Shown in pieces: positions 4,483 through 25,145 of a DNA stretch of 45,914 nt. Source of the DNA: a virus. The notes beneath the pieces are model-generated. The model ran no database searches. It saw only the letters and a list, made by a program, of their open reading frames with translations, and had not been told where the DNA came from. The stretch lies in the IMG/VR virus record IMGVR_UViG_3300045988_041103; one strand, 5' to 3'. A program made the translations under genes and the position numbers. Position 1 is the first letter of the stretch. Each line of letters opens with the position of its first letter.

Positions 4483-4881
4483 TTATGCTCCGATCAAACC
4501 GGCGATATGGCGCAAATCCTCCACAGGCCCATTGTAGAAGTCAAAGTTCCAAATCCAATGATCTTCATGCTCCGGGCGCTTGTACTTTTGGCATCGGGCA
4601 TCTTCCCAAACCTTGTTCCACCGGGCCTGATACCCGGAATCCCGCTTTTGCAGTCTGGAAAGAATGCGCCCAACCAGATCACCCCGTTCCCGGCCCATCC
4701 CATCATCATTCTGACTGAAGAAATCATAGGCGTTTTGGCTGGTGATCCCGCAAAGCGGTTTGTTCTGGTGCATCAAAAAACCGTCCTGACAGATCAGGGC
4801 GGTTCCATAGGGAATATTCACTTGGCCTGAAATGCCGTCAAACCTTGCCCGTTTTCGGCACAGATAATTTTTATACTGCAT
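4483..4881 (-). CDS. Hypothetical protein
   Basis: 132-aa ORF packed between the tail-fibre accessory gene and the lysis genes. No motif recognised. Confidence 0.5.
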   Translation of the reverse strand: MQYKNYLCRKRARFDGISGQVNIPYGTALICQDGFLMHQNKPLCGITSQNAYDFFSQNDDGMGRERGDLVGRILSRLQKRDSGYQARWNKVWEDARCQKYKRPEHEDHWIWNFDFYNGPVEDLRHIAGLIGA

Positions 4882-5488
4882 CGGTTACTTCCTCCCAACC
4901 ATACACACCCGGTTCCCAAACATTGTTATCCACGATGGAAACCCAATGCTTTTCATTGTGGGCAACTTTCGCCCCGCTGGAATAGGCATCATGCGCCCCC
5001 ACCGGCTGTGCCCAAGCGGGCCATTCTTCGGCGGGATTGGCGGTCAGGCTCCACAGGCTGGAAGCGGTGTCCGGTGTCCAGTCAGCTTGGGAAGTGTGAT
5101 CCTGAACGCACTTGTAAAGCACCCCACTAAAACGGCGGATTTGGCCGGTTTTGTAGGCGATAGGATAGGCCCATTCAGCAAACAGTTCAGCGTGTTCCGC
5201 CGCTGTTTCAGGATCAATGTTCCCGGCTTCTGCCATAGTTACGAACACGATTCCACCAGCTTCAGTAGCCTTGATGATCTCCATACCACCATCAGCTTCT
5301 TCCAAACTGACGGTTTCAACCCCGTCCAAACCTGTTCTTCCAAGCAAGTGATAAACGGTGCCGCCAAAAACAATGCCCGAAGCATCAGGCTCCGGGCAAA
5401 GGACATAGCAACCATTTTCGGCTTGTTTGATATAGTTCAGATTTTCAGTTAGGCCAATAGAGGCCCCGTTTTTGATGATTCTAAACAT
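4871..5488 (-). CDS. Tail-fibre-associated protein with two CBM5/12-like carbohydrate-binding motifs
   Basis: YKCVQDHTSQADWTPDTASSLW and HWVSIVDNNVWEPGVYGW resemble aromatic CBM5/12 repeats. The position matches xkdW/xkdX after the fibre. Confidence 0.5.
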   Translation of the reverse strand: MFRIIKNGASIGLTENLNYIKQAENGCYVLCPEPDASGIVFGGTVYHLLGRTGLDGVETVSLEEADGGMEIIKATEAGGIVFVTMAEAGNIDPETAAEHAELFAEWAYPIAYKTGQIRRFSGVLYKCVQDHTSQADWTPDTASSLWSLTANPAEEWPAWAQPVGAHDAYSSGAKVAHNEKHWVSIVDNNVWEPGVYGWEEVTDAV

Positions 5489-6648
5489 TCCGCACCTCCG
5501 AAAAAGATAGCATGATACAGCCGCCGCAAACGCAATGACCGCCCATGATCATTGAAGTTCCGGTAATATGCGCTTTGGCATTCCATGTACTGTTCAATAT
5601 CAAAGAAGGTTCTTTTTCCCTCTTTGAATTCTTTGTGAAATAGCTTCAGCTTTCGCCTTGCCCGTTTCACTCCATCCCGGCTTCCATTCACTTTCACCTT
5701 TCCGGTTTCGGTCAATGTAAATCGGGCCTTACAAAACCGAAACGGCTTTGTAAGTGGGATCACTTTGCATTTCCGCTTGTTCACCCGAATTCCAGCGGCT
5801 TCAAACCGTCTTACAATTTCATGCCCCATGAACTTTGCTTCATCAACACTGGGGAAGGTCATAAGGTAATCATCCATGTAATGGGCTTCATAGTCCACAC
5901 GGGCCTGACATTTGATCCAGTGATCAATTTTGCTGGGCATGGCAACCATTTCTTGTTGTGATGGTTCCACACCCAAAGGCATTCCCCGGCCCGGTGTTGG
6001 ACATGGTGAATATTGAATGACGGTATCAGCAATTCTTTGAAGATCAGGGTTCAAGATCAATTCCCGGTGCCGCTGGTAAAGAATTTCATGGGGTGCATTG
6101 GGAAAGAACCCTTTCAAATCAATCAGTAAAACGGCCCCTTCCCGACCATAGCGCCGATAATGCCAATGAAGCTGTTCCTTCAGCCGTTTATAGTGCCAGT
6201 GAAGGCCCTTATTCTTCTGTGAAGCCCCGTTTTCATAGATCATACAGGGGTTATACAACGGCACAAGAACTTCATTGCAAAGGGTCTTGTGAATTTGCCG
6301 ATCTGTGATATGCGGCGCATCAATAGGCCGTACCTTTCCACGCTCCCGAAGGGTGAAATGGGTACAGCTTTTTGGTTTCCATGTTCCATCCAATACTTCC
6401 CGCCGCCGTTTGGCTGTTCCTGAAAATAGGTGGGCTTCAAAGTTTTGAACACTTTGCTTCCACCGCACCCCATTACAGCACTTACGGCCATAGAAAAACA
6501 TTTTCCGGTAACTGAAAACCTGATTCACCGATCCAAGGCTATCAGATCGGGCTTGTTTCTTTGCTTGCCGCTTTGCTTTGCGACGCTGGTAGCGGGCTTC
6601 CCGCCGTTCCTGACTGTTCATAATTAAAAAAGTATTCGCCTTTCGCAC
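5449..6648 (-). CDS. DGR-type reverse transcriptase
   Basis: RERGKVRPIDAP (motif 1/2), YENGASQKNKG (the SQ motif typical of DGR RTs), LLIDLKGFF, and YMDD at 5869-5880. The start is either GTG 6648 or ATG 6621; neither has a clear SD. Confidence 0.9.
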   Translation of the reverse strand: MRKANTFLIMNSQERREARYQRRKAKRQAKKQARSDSLGSVNQVFSYRKMFFYGRKCCNGVRWKQSVQNFEAHLFSGTAKRRREVLDGTWKPKSCTHFTLRERGKVRPIDAPHITDRQIHKTLCNEVLVPLYNPCMIYENGASQKNKGLHWHYKRLKEQLHWHYRRYGREGAVLLIDLKGFFPNAPHEILYQRHRELILNPDLQRIADTVIQYSPCPTPGRGMPLGVEPSQQEMVAMPSKIDHWIKCQARVDYEAHYMDDYLMTFPSVDEAKFMGHEIVRRFEAAGIRVNKRKCKVIPLTKPFRFCKARFTLTETGKVKVNGSRDGVKRARRKLKLFHKEFKEGKRTFFDIEQYMECQSAYYRNFNDHGRSLRLRRLYHAIFFGGAECLESSKTGPLLA

Positions 6649-6920
6649 AGATAAATTGTAGGGTGCCTTCTAATCTGCTTTACCCATACACATGAAATGG
6701 GCTATGGCACATTCGCCCACCATGCAAGAAGCGTCCGTGCATGGGTGTCAAAAGAAAGGGTATCGGCTATAAAATAGATTATACCCCATCCCGCTTTCCC
6801 AAGCGGGGCAGTTTTAGGGATTAGCTACCCAAGGAAGTATCTCTCCTTTTACATCGGTCATCCTTCACCTGAAGCCCAAAGCCGGGTTTCTGTTACTACA
6901 TTCGACCGTGTATATTTGCA
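6649..6920 (-). ncRNA. DGR spacer: ORF-free, structured region between TR and RT (part of the TR RNA)
   Basis: There is no ORF on the minus strand. Stem-loops occur at e.g. 6790-6807 (CCCGCTT/AAGCGGG), 6718-6747 and 6662-6710. The position equals that of the BPP-1 Sp region. Confidence 0.55.
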
Positions 6921-7039
6921 AAATCCGGGCCGCAACCCACCAGAATTATTAGCATTGTTATTGTTGTAGTTGCCATCAGTCCAGACAATAACGAAATTGT
7001 TGTTGTTATTGTAATTAGGGGAGCGGAGCCACCACCAAA
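6921..7039 (-). repeat. DGR template repeat (TR), 119 bp
   Basis: Aligns without gaps to 7967-8085. Contains 32 coding-strand adenines and is rich in AAC/AAT codons. The ORF-track entry 6858..7055 (NNNNN-rich) is this element. Confidence 0.92.
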
Positions 7040-7081
7040 CCGCCGAAGGAAGCATTCATAGAGATACACCTAATTTTGAAG

Positions 7082-7546
7082 TTAAGATTTCATTTTTGCA
7101 CTTACATTTTTGATTGCCCCTTTCAAAAGTTCGTTTTCCTTGTCGATCAGTTCGCCTAAATTTTGGGCCATCTTATCCAGCTTTTCAATAGCGTCATTGG
7201 ATTTCACCGCAACCCCTTTGGAAGTGGTAAAAGCCCCTTCAGGGTTTTGGTTCAAAATCAGGTAAACATGGGTAAGGCGCACATCCAGCGCCATCAGGGA
7301 AGCCCTTGCTTCCAGCAAGTGGGCCTTCCGCAATTCAATCCGTTGAACATCAGAAGGAAAAATGCTGTTGGCCTTTTCCGCATGATCAATGATTTCACCC
7401 GCCAGCTTTGCAACGGGTTCCGCTATCAGGCGGGAATACCTTGCAGAAAGGCGGGTAAGAAAATTGATGGTTTCAACATAGATTTGGTTGGCCGTATTGA
7501 TGAATTCAGCCTTACTTGTGGTTCTCTTTTGCTTTAAGACAGACAT
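7082..7546 (-). CDS. Avd-like accessory variability determinant (helical bundle protein)
   Basis: 154 aa, predicted all-helical and basic. Lies between VR and TR exactly where avd sits in BPP-1-type DGRs. Sequence similarity to four-helix-bundle proteins is only recalled. Confidence 0.6.
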   Translation of the reverse strand: MSVLKQKRTTSKAEFINTANQIYVETINFLTRLSARYSRLIAEPVAKLAGEIIDHAEKANSIFPSDVQRIELRKAHLLEARASLMALDVRLTHVYLILNQNPEGAFTTSKGVAVKSNDAIEKLDKMAQNLGELIDKENELLKGAIKNVSAKMKS

Positions 7547-7549
7547 TGC

Positions 7550-7738
7550 TTATACCTCTTTGGATGAACCGTCAGCTTTGATCACACCTTGTTCATCTTC
7601 AATTTCCTTCAAATGCTTCAAAAGCACGAATTCAATATAATTGGTTACAGAACGATGTTCACGGGTAGCAAGTACACCGATTTTATCAAAGACTTCATCC
7701 GAAAGGCGTAAAGTAAAAACTTTCTTATTGGTTGCCAT
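7550..7738 (-). CDS. Ribbon-helix-helix (Arc/CopG-like) DNA-binding protein inside the DGR cassette
   Basis: KKVFTLRLSDEVFDKIGVLATREHRSVTNYIEFVLLKHL fits the beta-strand/helix/helix RHH pattern. 62 aa. Confidence 0.7.
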   Translation of the reverse strand: MATNKKVFTLRLSDEVFDKIGVLATREHRSVTNYIEFVLLKHLKEIEDEQGVIKADGSSKEV

Positions 7739-7909
7739 ACAATACCCCCTTGAAACCGGTCTTATAGATATTGTATGGCGGAAGTTGCGTTTTGTATGCC
7801 TTCACTTACCTGTCAAATGATAGCACTTTGAAGAAAAGTCGATTTTTCAAAATTTCGTCGGGCGGCTTACGCCGCCATTCTTATTTTTCTTTGGGGGTCC
7901 CTCCCGGAA

Positions 7910-7929
7910 CCGCCCCCTTCCGGGGGCGG
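7910..7929 (-). promoter_or_regulatory. GC hairpin 3' of VR (DGR target-recognition hairpin candidate)
   Basis: 8-bp stem CCGCCCCC (7910-7917) pairs with GGGGGCGG (7922-7929). The 4-nt loop reads GGAA on the coding strand. It lies 37 nt beyond the last VR/TR-homologous base. Confidence 0.7.
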
Positions 7930-7957
7930 GATAAGGCCGGGATCATCCTGCGGGGGA

Positions 7958-9844
7958 TTAGGCGGCAAAGCCGGGCCGCAACCCACCAGAACCATAAGCA
8001 TCGCTAATGCTGTAGGTGCCATCAGTCCAGACAAAAACGAAAGAGTTGTTGCTACCGTAATAAGGGGAGCGGAGCCACCACCAAAACCCCCCCCTCCCCC
8101 GCCCCCCCCCCCAACCCGCCGTATTCACGGCGGTATGATTATTGGCAACCTTACTGTTACCAGCCTTATAATAAGCATACTGCTGTTGGCTGTTCTGCTC
8201 ATATTGGTTGGCGTAGTTTCTTACTCCAAACACTTCAAATTCGGCCAGATCAAACAGGTAATCCCTTGTGGCGGTAACATTGCCCGCACTATTGGAAGAA
8301 TTGCCCGTGTTATCAGTATATTTGGTTACAGGTTGCATCACGGCCCGAAGGTCAGCCGGAAGCGCCGCCATCAAGCTATTGCTGATTGGGCTGGTGGGGG
8401 TGCCAGTGTTTCCATACAAGGTTTTCCGTTTGGAACAGCCATTCCAGCCACCAGCATTGGTGTTGGAATCATTCATGTGGAAATAGCCAGCCCCGCTTAT
8501 ACTATTACCATACTTTGCATCACACAGCGCCACAGGGGTTGTTCCCATCTTTCCAATCTGGAAGTGAATCAGATTGTTGCCTTCCTTGGCGGCATTGTGA
8601 TTGAACCCGATGATGAAAACATTGATCTTCAAATTGCTAAAGGTGTGGTTGCCAACTTTACCATTGATGGTGATTTCTTTCATATCACCCACAGCCCAAT
8701 AGTTGGCACCCAAACCGGCGCTACTCACTTCCCGAATGGTGGCCCAATCATTATCAGAAAGGTTTTTGGTGGGCATGGTCACTTCAACCGAACAGGTTTT
8801 ATTTGCCGGGGCGTTGTGATTGGTGCCAGCGGCCACAGAAACCGTGATTGTAGCCTTTCCCTTGGCCTTGGCGGTAACTGTTACCGTGTTGCCCGAAACG
8901 CTCACAGAAGCCACGCCAGACGCATTAGAAGTGGCCGTAATAACACCGTCACCGGCTCTGGTAACTGTGATGGTGTCTGTTTTCTTGGCGGCGGTCAGCT
9001 TCATGGAAGTTTTATTCAAAGACAAACTTCCAGCGGCCTTCCCAATTCTCCAAACCACAGTTTTTGTACCGGTGCTTCCATCACTCCATTTGTAGTTTGC
9101 ACTGGGGGTAAAGGTGGCGTTATAGCTTCCCGCATTGGTGCCTGTGGTAGTTCCTCCAAGGGTCATTTTCCCGGTGTCATACCCCGACCAAGAAGGGCTT
9201 TGCGGGGAACCATTGAAGGTAAGGCTTCCGCTTTGGGTAGGTGCCGCCATAGAAGCCCGGTCAATCTTCCATGTAACCTGTTTTGCGGTCTTGGTGCCAT
9301 CACTCCATTGATATTTTTCCTTGGGGGTGAAGGTGGCCGTATAAGTCCCGGCATCGGTGCCGGTAGTCACTCCCCCAAGGGTCATGGCGTTAGGATCATA
9401 GCTGTTCCAAGAAGGGCTTTGGGCCTGTCCGTTATAGGTCAGAACACCGTTTTGAGTGGGAACCGCATTGATGGTGAAAGCGATCTTGGACACAGCTTCC
9501 AAGGCCGCATCTGCGGCATCTTGGGCATTCTGCGCCGCTGTCACACAGGTTTCAATCTGCCCCAACAAATAGGGGTGGGCTTTCTTGTTTCCATCGTGGG
9601 TGGTTACAACCTGTTCAGCGGTGCCCTTTGCTTCATAGTCCATAGTGGGAAGCTGTTCAGCGGGAACCTTCCCACCCACCAAATCAGCCTTGTTTTTCTG
9701 CCCATCCTGAAGGTCTTTGATACCATCGGCATTGGTTTTCATTTGGGCATCAATCTTGTCCATGTTGCCATTCTGAACTTCAACATCATAAAATTCAGAA
9801 GCAAGGGGTTTGGTCAGCCCATAGTTTGTGGTTTGATTGGGCAT
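7958..9844 (-). CDS. Tail fibre / receptor-binding protein, DGR target
   Basis: 628 aa. The N-terminus is phage fibre-like. It contains two tandem ~72-aa repeats, a Big_2-like segment (TITVTRAGDG...ATITVSVAAG), and a C-terminal domain ending in WWWLRSP...VWTDG...GGLRPGFAA that carries VR. Occupies the xkdV position. Confidence 0.9.
   Translation of the reverse strand: MPNQTTNYGLTKPLASEFYDVEVQNGNMDKIDAQMKTNADGIKDLQDGQKNKADLVGGKVPAEQLPTMDYEAKGTAEQVVTTHDGNKKAHPYLLGQIETCVTAAQNAQDAADAALEAVSKIAFTINAVPTQNGVLTYNGQAQSPSWNSYDPNAMTLGGVTTGTDAGTYTATFTPKEKYQWSDGTKTAKQVTWKIDRASMAAPTQSGSLTFNGSPQSPSWSGYDTGKMTLGGTTTGTNAGSYNATFTPSANYKWSDGSTGTKTVVWRIGKAAGSLSLNKTSMKLTAAKKTDTITVTRAGDGVITATSNASGVASVSVSGNTVTVTAKAKGKATITVSVAAGTNHNAPANKTCSVEVTMPTKNLSDNDWATIREVSSAGLGANYWAVGDMKEITINGKVGNHTFSNLKINVFIIGFNHNAAKEGNNLIHFQIGKMGTTPVALCDAKYGNSISGAGYFHMNDSNTNAGGWNGCSKRKTLYGNTGTPTSPISNSLMAALPADLRAVMQPVTKYTDNTGNSSNSAGNVTATRDYLFDLAEFEVFGVRNYANQYEQNSQQQYAYYKAGNSKVANNHTAVNTAGWGGGRGRGGFWWWLRSPYYGSNNSFVFVWTDGTYSISDAYGSGGLRPGFAA
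7967..8085 (-). repeat. DGR variable repeat (VR), last 119 bp of the tail-fibre ORF
   Basis: There are 16 mismatches to TR, all at plus-strand T (coding-strand A) of TR. The A-free 3' stretch TCTGGTGGGTTGCGGCCCGG is identical in both copies. Confidence 0.92.
9029..9460 (-). repeat. Tandem duplication (2 x ~215 bp) encoding two Ig-like repeats of the fibre
   Basis: Residues 129-200 (PTQNGVLTYNGQAQSPSW...) and 202-272 (PTQSGSLTFNGSPQSPSW...) align at roughly half identity. Confidence 0.7.
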
Positions 9845-10386
9845 CAGTTAAGCACCTCGTTTCTTAATTGGTCATGGGTATGGGCGGCAAGCTGGGAGTG
9901 GGTAAAGCGTCCAAGTTCAGCGTGGGTGTTATAGAGCTGAAGAAGGGTTACAATCAGGTTTTGTGGAACCACTCTGTTCAGCAAGGATTCAACATCGGTG
10001 AAATTGTTTTTTGCCGCCAACCCAATTTTCACAATCAGGTGATAGGTTCCTTCTGCCACATCCGCTGAATAGTTCCCCGGCCCACAAAGGGTTTCAAGGA
10101 TATTCCGAAGTTGCGGAAGGGTGTAAGGAAGTTCTTCATTGATTCTGGTCAAAATACGGAACCGGCGATCTTCAAGGCTGTCAGTCCCCTTGGGCGTGAT
10201 CTCCAAAATCTTTTCCCATCGGGAAAGGCCCACATTTCCAGCGGTGGAAATGAACTGATTGTTCAAAAGATCATCAGCATTGTTCCACGCCTGATCAAAT
10301 TCAGGCTGTTCACTCTCCATGATCCCTTCATATTCCTTGAAATCTCGCATCGCATAGGGTAGGTAATCAATCAGTTTTCGTTCCAT
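9844..10386 (-). CDS. XkdU-like baseplate/tail protein (DUF2313-like)
   Basis: Position is after baseplate J. The N-terminus LIDYLPYAMRDFKEYEGIM... is typical of this family (recalled). Confidence 0.65.
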   Translation of the reverse strand: MERKLIDYLPYAMRDFKEYEGIMESEQPEFDQAWNNADDLLNNQFISTAGNVGLSRWEKILEITPKGTDSLEDRRFRILTRINEELPYTLPQLRNILETLCGPGNYSADVAEGTYHLIVKIGLAAKNNFTDVESLLNRVVPQNLIVTLLQLYNTHAELGRFTHSQLAAHTHDQLRNEVLN

Positions 10387-10399
10387 CAGTCACCACCCC

Positions 10400-11632
10400 T
10401 TATGCCTTAATTTCAATAGTGGTTGGTGCAAGGGAACCCAACACCGGGATATGGTCAAGGGCCAATGTATGATTGGCGGCTTTTTCATTGATCGTGGTGT
10501 TGGCAATATCCAAAATACCGGTGATACCCAACAGGCGGCTTTCAATTTGGCTGATACGAACCACAAGGGCTTCATCCTGATCCGCCCAACTTTGGGCCAG
10601 TTCCAAGAAGTACCCGTTAATTGCTTCCGTGACATACCCGGAAACATCTTCCCAAGACCATCCCCGTTGATAATACAGGGCAAAGCCCAAATCAACGGTT
10701 TCTTCCTGAACACCTTCCACCCTGACCACATGGCCGATGGGGGCAATTCCAACGCCTTCCCCGGCATTCTGAAGGGGGTCAACGGCGGTTTGAACCTGTT
10801 CTACCAGTGTGGGGGAAGGAACCGTGAAGGTGCTGTTGATCACCACCAGCTTCACAGTTCCGCCCACAGTGAACATATTGTTCTTGGCGGCGGCATAAAC
10901 GGTATCAAGCCAAAGTTTCACCGGTTCGGGAACCCCGGAAAGGCCCTCAATCCACGCTTCAGCTTCCTTGGGCGGGATCATGTTGGCCGGTTTCAAATCC
11001 CCATTCCAAGCCCGGTAAACCTTCACCCCACCAACGCCGGGAATGGCATTGACCTTTTCAATATAGTCAATCTGGTTTCCGCCGAAGGCTTGGGCATTCA
11101 AGCTGTTAAGGTATCTTTGTCTGAAAAGTTCGGTATCTTCTTCATCTTCACCGGGAACCAACACCGAAGTGATTTTACAGGTTTCAAGGCCATCCACATA
11201 TTCAATGGGGATCACCGTTCCGGTGTAGTTATTGCCAGCTTCACCAGCCGTTTCACAGGTCAATTCATAGTTGCCGCTTCCCCGATCCGCCGAAACATAA
11301 TAGTTCAATTCCCCAATGGAAAAGCGGGTGTTCAGCGGCAAGAACAAAGTAGTGGGTGTAATTGCCATTTGCAAAATGGCGGGGCTTGCCGGTTGCGGGG
11401 AAAGGCCCCGTTCCGCCGCTCTCAAAATCAAATAAGGGCGGGTGGCGGTATCGGCAAAGGTTTCATTCAGCACGGTATCAAGGGCAATATAAAGGTTCTG
11501 CAATTCCACAGCGGCGGGGGCATCCCCATACCACACCAACGAACCTTCACGGGTATCAAGGTTGCTGTTAATGGAAAGGGCCTTCTGAAGCATCCGTGCC
11601 AAGATAGATTCATAGGTTTGCGCTTCATACAT
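10400..11632 (-). CDS. Baseplate J-like protein (XkdT-like)
   Basis: 410 aa. N-terminus YESILARMLQ...REGSLVWYG... is typical of Baseplate_J. Synteny supports the call. Confidence 0.8.
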   Translation of the reverse strand: MYEAQTYESILARMLQKALSINSNLDTREGSLVWYGDAPAAVELQNLYIALDTVLNETFADTATRPYLILRAAERGLSPQPASPAILQMAITPTTLFLPLNTRFSIGELNYYVSADRGSGNYELTCETAGEAGNNYTGTVIPIEYVDGLETCKITSVLVPGEDEEDTELFRQRYLNSLNAQAFGGNQIDYIEKVNAIPGVGGVKVYRAWNGDLKPANMIPPKEAEAWIEGLSGVPEPVKLWLDTVYAAAKNNMFTVGGTVKLVVINSTFTVPSPTLVEQVQTAVDPLQNAGEGVGIAPIGHVVRVEGVQEETVDLGFALYYQRGWSWEDVSGYVTEAINGYFLELAQSWADQDEALVVRISQIESRLLGITGILDIANTTINEKAANHTLALDHIPVLGSLAPTTIEIKA

Positions 11633-24984: not shown

Positions 24985-25067
24985 TGGTGCCGGGTATGGG
25001 ACTTGAACCCATACGCCAAAGGCGGCGGATTTTGAATCCGCTGTGTCTGCCATTCCACCAACCCGGC
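24985..25067 (-). tRNA. tRNA-Leu: tRNA-Leu (anticodon CAA), class II with a long variable arm, encoded CCA
   Basis: Folded manually: acceptor GCCGGGT/ACCCGGC, anticodon stem GCGGA/TCCGC with loop TTCAAAA, T arm ATGGG-TTCAAGT-CCCAT, 3' ACCA. Confidence 0.9.
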
Positions 25068-25070
25068 AAG

Positions 25071-25145
25071 TGGTAGCGTGTACGGGGGTCGAACCCGTGT
25101 TCCCGGCTTGAAGGGCCGGTGTCTTAACCGCTTGACTAACACGCC
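25071..25145 (-). tRNA. tRNA-Glu: tRNA-Glu (anticodon TTC), encoded CCA
   Basis: Acceptor GGCGTGT/ACACGCT, anticodon stem CCGGC/GCCGG with loop CCTTCAA, T arm ACGGG-TTCGACC-CCCGT. Confidence 0.9.

Follow-up and report, generated by a model that had tools for sequence, protein, structure and literature searches.

A repeat pair with adenine-restricted variation in a phage tail-fibre module, very probably the template and variable repeats of a complete diversity-generating retroelement

Diversity-generating retroelements (DGRs) rewrite a variable repeat (VR) in a target gene from a template repeat (TR). A stretch of viral DNA of 45,914 nucleotides (nt), IMG/VR record IMGVR_UViG_3300045988_041103, which in its full length is called the window here, contains a repeat pair that very probably represents the TR and VR of a complete DGR located in the tail-fibre module of a temperate contractile-tailed phage. 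The element is assigned to the lineage known from the Faecalibacterium phage FP_Taranis and is probably active in this genome. The TR (6921–7039) is non-coding, while the VR (7967–8085) constitutes the last 40 codons of the target gene, whose stop codon lies at 7958–7960. All parts of the DGR are on the minus strand, which is therefore the coding strand, and coordinates refer to the whole window. The sequence-only reading, made earlier from the letters of this DNA, had proposed a DGR on the basis of the repeat pair. This interpretation is now supported by the presence of each expected component next to the repeats and by the recurrence of the adenine pattern in relatives.

The ungapped comparison of TR 6921–7039 with VR 7967–8085 was recounted and gave, as had been claimed, 16 mismatches in 119 positions. 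All 16 fall on a plus-strand T of TR, i.e., a coding-strand A, of which TR has 32, and none of the 87 other bases is changed. The probability that 16 random mismatches would all be placed on the 32 adenines, C(32,16)/C(119,16), equals 2.2e-11. The substitutions from TR to VR comprise A>G (8), A>T (5), and A>C (3), and 15 of the 16 occupy codon position 1 or 2. The translations provided with the earlier alignment were also correct: in the frame of the open reading frame (ORF) 7958–9844(-), TR reads NYNNNNNFVIVWTDGNYNNNNANNSGGLRPG and VR reads YYGSNNSFVFVWTDGTYSISDAYGSGGLRPG. Unsupervised repeat detection recovered the same pair. When the adenine-masked TR was slid over both strands, whole and in pieces, no second VR-like copy was found in the window.

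Two details of the earlier description have to be modified. Adenine mutagenesis had been assumed for all 16 differences and this holds for 15 of them. The 16th difference, with A at TR 6924 and C at VR 7970, is synonymous (GGA>GGC) and located 3′ of an A-free stretch. Of 61 relatives, 57 have C at this VR site and the remaining four have A; G or T never occurs. In one relative, L094 (4838–4961/5664–5787), VR equals TR apart from this base, so that it is the sole TR/VR difference. The 6924/7970 difference is thus a near-fixed base telling the recipient from the donor and not a product of mutagenesis; therefore, the mutagenised fraction amounts to 15 of 31 adenines. In the prototype DGR of phage BPP-1, fixed differences separate the initiation of mutagenic homing (IMH) element from its TR counterpart, IMH*, and the marker found here behaves like them. 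The second detail is the extent of the repeat: in relatives the homology is 6 nt longer at the 5′ side (CGGCGG) and reaches the position corresponding to TR 7045. As for the A-free end of approximately 20 nt, compared before to an IMH, its identity in both copies was confirmed: the GC-rich 3′ end of VR, TCTGGTGGGTTGCGGCCCGG (7971–7990; 20 nt), is the same as TR 6925–6944. This stretch, followed by the A/C difference, forms an IMH-like signal, and its function as an IMH, including a role in directionality, is suggested by sequence. All 31 mutable adenines of TR are at codon positions 1–2 and are distributed over 18 codons, 13 of which are AAY. None of the 18 variable codons can turn into a stop codon, and the design gives access to about 2e18 protein variants.

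The relatives of the cassette were collected by RT (reverse transcriptase) search, which returned 163 loci in IMG/VR, of which 80 were fetched (L001–L080), and a further 25 loci in genomes (L081–L105). A TR/VR pair was detected in each relative with enough upstream sequence, both among IMG/VR and genome loci. The A-specific pattern was seen in approximately 60 independent assemblies, including the cultured strains Faecousia intestinalis CLA-AA-H192, Faecalibacterium tardum CLA-AA-H175, and Flintibacter muris DSM 110149. For 59 ungapped full-length pairs pooled together, with the marker position excluded, the two copies differ at 776 of 1895 TR-adenine sites (41%) and at 49 of 5425 other sites (0.9%). 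The 42 full-length IMG/VR pairs contain 23 distinct TRs, and all 42 VRs are distinct. In two sets of genomes (n = 11 and n = 10), each with an identical TR within the set, VR identity is 0.43–0.45 at A sites and 0.995–0.996 at non-A sites, and it is 0.95–0.99 in the 300 nt upstream. A TR identical to that of the window is carried by two metagenome contigs, L110 and L113. Their VRs show 15 and 16 A-site differences from this TR, with none elsewhere, and each of them is unlike the VR of the window.

In the relatives, VR varies only at TR-adenine sites, TR is conserved, and both copies co-vary at non-adenine sites. In L001 and L112, a T>C change in TR is accompanied by the same C in VR. In L002, with RT 99% identical to that of the window, the central segment of TR is different and VR matches its own TR. 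Since the T>C change is shared by both copies and the VR of L002 follows its own TR, the information flows from TR to VR. Some individual loci depart from the general picture. The TR 3′ halves of L040 and L024 look “diversified,” and in L052 TR and VR belong to different types, suggesting assembly chimeras or recombination. It was also observed that about 30 of the 80 IMG/VR contigs stop within VR or within approximately 350 nt 3′ of it, and three begin at TR. The break sites 3′ of VR correspond to two hairpins or to the boundary at which a small gene is present or absent (both described below). The break counts were read from hit tables, and some loci were ended by stored data and not by the contig end. 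Breaks at VR fit a hypervariable repeat, and a plain repeat could give the same result.

The TR is followed by a structured spacer RNA, assigned to the Rfam family RF03077 (RT-2), at 6618–6910. It starts 10 nt past TR and reaches into the start of the RT gene. The match obtained 136.1 bits compared to the gathering score of 40 and covers positions 1–222 of the 222-position model; a 63-nt insertion is present in one stem of the window’s RNA. RNA motifs found near RT genes were named RT-1 to RT-19 by Weinberg and co-workers, who tied only RT-10 to a DGR, as the spacer between TR and brt of BPP-1, and considered it conceivable that others are DGR components (Weinberg et al., PMC5737381). No link between RT-2 and DGRs was found in the literature searched. 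RT-2 occupies the TR–RT spacer, approximately 10 nt past TR, in 12 of 12 tested relatives (L003, L012, L067, L086, L087, L091, L093, L099, L102, L105, L106, and L107), and in 13 of 13 loci when the window is included. These loci include FP_Taranis, the related Faecalibacterium phage Pioen, and, with an RT of only 47% identity, a locus from Desulfovibrionaceae. Because the placement is the same in the window and in all 12 relatives, RT-2 is considered to be the TR–RT spacer of this lineage, which gives the lineage a defined RNA for testing the BPP-1 priming model.

The RT gene (5449–6648) lies 272 nt from the end of TR and encodes 399 amino acids (aa) when the ORF is read from GTG at 6648; ATG at 6621 is the likely start. 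The protein belongs to RT families (Pfam RVT_1, 2.3e-12; phrog_1423, 8.8e-73). Its best solved relative is the PDB entry 8ub7 (E 1.7e-8; residues 41–342), followed by the group II intron RT GsI-IIC (6e-3). The aligned sequence of 8ub7 is 100% identical to brt of BPP-1, as determined by tblastn; no publication naming this entry was found. In the 8ub7 alignment, MPLGVEPSQ of the window’s RT pairs with IPIGSLTSQ of Brt, and YMDD pairs with YMDD. The motif [LIV]GxxxSQ is a hallmark of DGR RTs. Assignment of the enzyme to a group II intron or a retron was considered and rejected: the TIGR04416 score was 52.7 bits with a cutoff of 300, and the Rfam scan of the whole window identified only RT-2 and two tRNAs.

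The VR belongs to a gene (7958–9844) for a 628-aa tail-fibre/receptor-binding protein with an immunoglobulin (Ig)-like middle part and a C-terminal DUF6273 domain ending in VR. The DUF6273 match (Pfam, 3.5e-12) spans residues 460–626, the match to Big_2 is weak, and phrog_37900 is matched over the full length. Upstream of the gene there are a Mu gp48-like baseplate gene (9844–10386) and a baseplate J gene (10400–11632). The AlphaFold2 (AF2) model of residues 357–628 was obtained with a predicted local distance difference test score (pLDDT) of 89 and a predicted template modelling (TM) score of 0.90; for a Gly-rich insertion discussed below, pLDDT was lower than 50. In the BFVD database, the best match of the domain is a “tail-collar fiber protein” (TM 0.93), and DUF6273 proteins are matched as well. 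The sole significant Foldseek match in PDB is 9qa6 (E 6e-7), the immunoglobulin A (IgA) peptidase of Thomasclavelia ramosa, whose N-terminal domain is DUF6273. It was previously described that DUF6273 is a DGR target domain with VR at the C-terminus (PMC11792537; PMC10743442). The changes in VR map to the C-terminal strands of this receptor-binding domain. An alignment of 40 target sequences shows that the scaffold is kept (W..LRS, F, V, TDG, A, S, G, and PGF), while the AAY-templated positions are free to vary. Biologically, the element presumably serves to diversify the receptor binding of the tail fibre.

Between VR and TR, at the position of Avd in other DGRs, there is a gene for a 154-aa basic helical protein (7082–7546). 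All 63 of the 63 related cassettes examined encode a homologue at this site. The protein has an isoelectric point of 9.45, and its AF2 model (pLDDT 80) consists of four long helices. It belongs to phrog_30516, a family of unknown function with 466 representatives at 50% clustering (E ≤ 0.001). Cornuault and co-workers found no Avd homologue in Taranis, proposed that another small protein may act instead, and noted that Avd is not universal among the described DGRs (Cornuault et al., PMC5883640). As no Avd homology was found for the 154-aa protein either, we refer to it as the Avd-position accessory protein. It may be the “other small protein” postulated by these authors, and functional equivalence of the accessory protein and Avd seems likely.

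The region between the target gene and the accessory gene contains elements that may serve in homing and in expression of the cassette. Hairpin 1, possibly a cruciform, CCGCCCCC-GGAA-GGGGGCGG (7910–7929), was seen in the DNA fold 3′ of VR. Efficient homing in BPP-1 needs a hairpin/cruciform downstream of VR, and in phage DGRs such structures have GC stems of 7–10 bp with 4-nt GRNA loops and are placed 4–34 bp from VR (Guo et al., PMC3240598). The 8-bp GC stem and the loop of hairpin 1 agree with this description (PMC3240598). In 10 of 10 distinct relatives the stem is 100% paired, with a compensatory change at one pair (C:G in four relatives, G:C in five), and the loops are GGAA, GAAA, or GCAA. 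As individual cases, the hairpin loop of L038 is inverted (TTTC) and L036 is without hairpin 1. The second hairpin, GGCGGC-GTAA-GCCGCC (7861–7876), is followed by a weak T-run and kept in relatives; it is possibly a terminator of the target gene.

Further downstream, a putative extended −10 element, TGCTATCAT (7817–7825), was read from the sequence as a start for the transcript of the genes that follow. Either TGTGCTATACT or GTGCTATCAT is kept at the same spot in relatives, irrespective of whether the next gene is present or absent. This gene (7550–7738) encodes a 62-aa ribbon-helix-helix (RHH) protein of Arc/CopG-like type and lies inside the cassette, separated from the downstream accessory gene by 3 nt. 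The match to Pfam RHH_7 (8.6e-5) is below the family cutoff, and PHROG indicates an Arc-like repressor (7.6e-7). The RHH gene was found in 45 of 63 related cassettes and is optional in the lineage. A conserved inverted repeat, CCATACAATA (7779–7770)/TATTGTATGG (7746–7737), overlaps its start codon. The RHH protein may regulate the DGR operon: in about 70% of cassettes its gene is the first one of the putative operon, which suggests transcriptional control of hypermutation.

The anatomy of the cassette, the adenine-restricted variation, the flow of information from TR to VR, and the conserved hairpin and spacer RNA were observed directly; for the way in which the element most likely works, standard mutagenic retrohoming is proposed by analogy to BPP-1. 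One transcript, starting from a promoter downstream of the terminator-like hairpin of the target gene, would cover the RHH gene, the accessory gene, TR, RT-2, and the RT gene. The RT and the basic helical accessory protein would bind the TR-spacer RNA, with RT-2 positioning and priming complementary DNA (cDNA) synthesis at the 3′ end of TR. The enzyme would then copy TR faithfully except opposite adenines, where any nucleotide could be incorporated, and the resulting cDNA would replace VR. It is proposed that the A-free GC-rich end, the A/C marker, and the hairpin with the GRNA loop single out VR as the recipient, leaving TR intact.

A separate issue is a 30-nt G-rich in-frame insertion, GTTGGGGGGGGGGGCGGGGGAGGGGGGGGT (8086–8115), encoding GWGGGRGRGG, which splits the homology at the 5′ edge of VR. 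In its absence, the TR/VR homology would gain 6 nt at the 5′ side (CGGCGG; TR to 7045, VR 8116–8121). The tract directly follows a GC hairpin, CCGCCG-TGAATA-CGGCGG (8133–8116), lies inside the A-free 5′ homology, keeps the reading frame, and is predicted to form a disordered loop. It is missing from the nearly identical relatives L001 and L004 and from 39 homologous proteins. Its junction was not found in IMG/VR or JGI metagenome contigs, in which the normal junction was found five times. In 1.07 Mb of sequence (the window and relatives), there are two G/C-rich low-complexity tracts, both no more than approximately 30 nt from a VR boundary; the second one (L034, 4765–4799) is in place of the hairpin. 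Apart from these tracts, G/C homopolymers of 9–10 nt are present at five other sites of the window (2094, 26764, 32099, 34445, and 37218). The explanation we favour, with moderate confidence, is an artefact of assembly or sequencing at a GC-structured, hypervariable site that is hard to assemble. A private real insertion is possible. It is decidedly unlikely that the tract was made by the retroelement through slipped or untemplated synthesis at the 3′ end of cDNA and fixed on joining the 5′ side of VR; if true, the least understood step of mutagenic retrohoming would have left a natural footprint here.

Several points weigh against reading the repeats as parts of a complete and active DGR. The activity in this genome is judged from sequence, and the function of RT-2 in positioning and priming of cDNA synthesis is drawn from the analogy to BPP-1. 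The promoter at TGCTATCAT is putative and proposed from conservation; in a scan with the sigma-70 consensus, promoter-like sites were fewer than in shuffled sequence, with none upstream of the RHH gene. Hairpin 1 is placed 37 nt from VR, just beyond the published distance of 4–34 bp. If the G-rich tract is real, then only 6 nt of homology are left upstream of it. The accessory protein shows no relationship to Avd in sequence searches of Pfam, NCBIfam, and PDB. The Pfam searches at E ≤ 10 were made with 28 and then with 43 diverse family members, and the PDB searches both with a single sequence and with a 43-member profile; none gave a match. Comparison by hhalign to bAvd and to a 28-sequence profile of the bAvd family (PF22296) gave a probability of at most 0.3%. 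Foldseek against PDB returned generic helical bundles only, none at E ≤ 0.001, with 2gsc among them (E 0.19; TM 0.46/0.6). For the target domain, C-type lectins appear among the Foldseek PDB matches only at E > 2, and hhalign detected no similarity to Mtd, the target protein of BPP-1.

The alternative that survives these considerations best is that the DGR is real and has become a silent relic here: the A-specific differences would represent past activity, and retrohoming would no longer take place. The break of the 5′ homology by the G-rich insertion (8086–8115) would fit such a state, and L094, with a VR equal to TR except for the marker, demonstrates that cassettes without accumulated VR changes exist in the lineage. 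However, the RT ORF is intact and includes YMDD, RT-2 is matched over its full length, and both the hairpin and the A-free end are intact. Moreover, no adenine has been lost from TR, and L110 and L113 have the same TR together with differing VRs. We consider the silent relic very unlikely. The chance that the repeats arose without a retroelement, either as an ordinary duplicated gene fragment that point mutation and selection drove apart or as an artefact of assembly, is close to negligible: two-copy repeats do arise by chance or duplication and one suspicious low-complexity tract is present in the region, yet such origins conflict with the A-only pattern (P = 2.2e-11), with the same pattern in approximately 60 independent assemblies including named cultured strains, and with the RT and conserved spacer RNA that always adjoin the repeat.

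The complete DGR inferred here can be compared to several known systems, first of all to BPP-1 (mtd-avd-TR-brt). Both share the order of target, small accessory gene, TR, spacer RNA, and RT, the adenine-specific TR/VR differences, and VR as the last ~40 codons of the tail-fibre gene. In both, the repeat terminates 3′ in a GC-rich stretch free of A, with a base distinguishing TR from VR, and VR is followed by a GC hairpin (stem of about 8 bp, loop of 4 nt; CGGGGCC-GAAA-GGCCCCG in BPP-1). Brt, as mentioned, is the best solved relative of the window’s RT. The two systems differ in the accessory protein, which has 154 aa here and 128 aa in BPP-1 (hhalign to bAvd/PF22296, probability 0.1%), in the target domain (DUF6273 and Mtd, respectively), and in the spacer, which is RT-2 of 272 nt here and RT-10 of 144 nt in BPP-1 (PMC5737381). 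In addition, the window has the extra RHH gene, its RT consists of 399 aa compared to 328 aa, and the organism that the phage presumably infects is a Gram-positive gut anaerobe.

Among named phages, the nearest are the Faecalibacterium phages FP_Taranis, Pioen, and Roos, with RTs 66–67% identical to that of the window (PMC5883640; PMC11792537). In FP_Taranis and Pioen, the ORFs are ordered as target, 61-aa ORF, 152-aa ORF, gap, and RT, and RT-2 is found between TR and RT (175 bits); the 61-aa ORF of FP_Taranis is at the same position as the RHH gene of the window. A DUF6273 target with VR at the C-terminus is shared with Pioen and Roos, and the lack of an identified Avd homologue with Taranis (PMC5883640). 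These are nevertheless other phages, differing in TR sequence and target length. Among the IMG/VR contigs, L001 and L004 (contigs of 28.6–46.4 kb) are nearly identical to the window, with RT 99% and the 154-aa protein 100% identical and TR different by 1–2 nt. The relatives from IMG/VR and from Oscillospiraceae prophages differ in that each has its own VR and in that the G-rich insertion is present in none of them. When 50,697 phage records were searched for DNA at least ~85% identical, only two unannotated fragments from human faeces and no full-length phage were returned; a protein identical to the 628-aa target was not on record either. More distant are the DGRs of nd4/nd12 and Toutatisvirus, with DUF6273 “tentaclin”/Mtd-like targets (PMC10743442; bioRxiv 10.1101/2024.10.15.618418). 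Their RTs are ~26–27% identical, and unlike the window they include two targets, in one of which VR is close to the N-terminus; a recognisable Avd was described in one of these systems.

The cassette type is already known from FP_Taranis, Pioen, and Roos, and the window is a further example of it. Because these phages share the cassette type and the near-identical L001 and L004 exist, the element is regarded as a new example of a known system. As a DGR it is ordinary, and its value is that of a clean and well-replicated example. The assignment of RT-2 to this lineage, the 154-aa accessory factor, and the presence of the RHH gene in the cassettes are apparently absent from the literature. The roles of the RT-2 spacer, the accessory protein, and the RHH protein are put forward as hypotheses.

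The rest of the window encodes a tape measure protein, sheath, major head protein, portal, large terminase, DNA polymerase, primase, and helicase. Further assignments, made by reading the ORF translations and not by family searches, concern an integrase-like ORF, an amidase-like ORF, and small ORFs next to the latter, perhaps holins. Since related contigs span 45–47 kb, the window corresponds to approximately the whole genome of a temperate contractile-tailed phage (~46 kb). The prophage relatives (L081–L104) reside in Faecousia, Faecalibacterium, Pseudoflavonifractor, Flintibacter, Oscillibacter, and other Oscillospiraceae, from which a host among gut Oscillospiraceae can be inferred. Phages of gut Oscillospiraceae are rich in DGRs.

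Twister-sister ribozymes, two type II hammerheads, and a group II intron are found a few kb downstream of the DGR in related prophages (L091, 10731–11081 and 12969–13155; L093, 12248–12331; L102, 12787–12870), whereas the window has none. Two minus-strand tRNA genes, tRNA-Leu(CAA) and tRNA-Glu(TTC), are located at 24985–25145. It is also worth mentioning that the 3′ end of the RT gene is overlapped by 40 nt by a 205-aa ORF (4871–5488) with a carbohydrate-binding module (CBM_5_12), which is placed between the DGR and the ORFs read as lysis genes.

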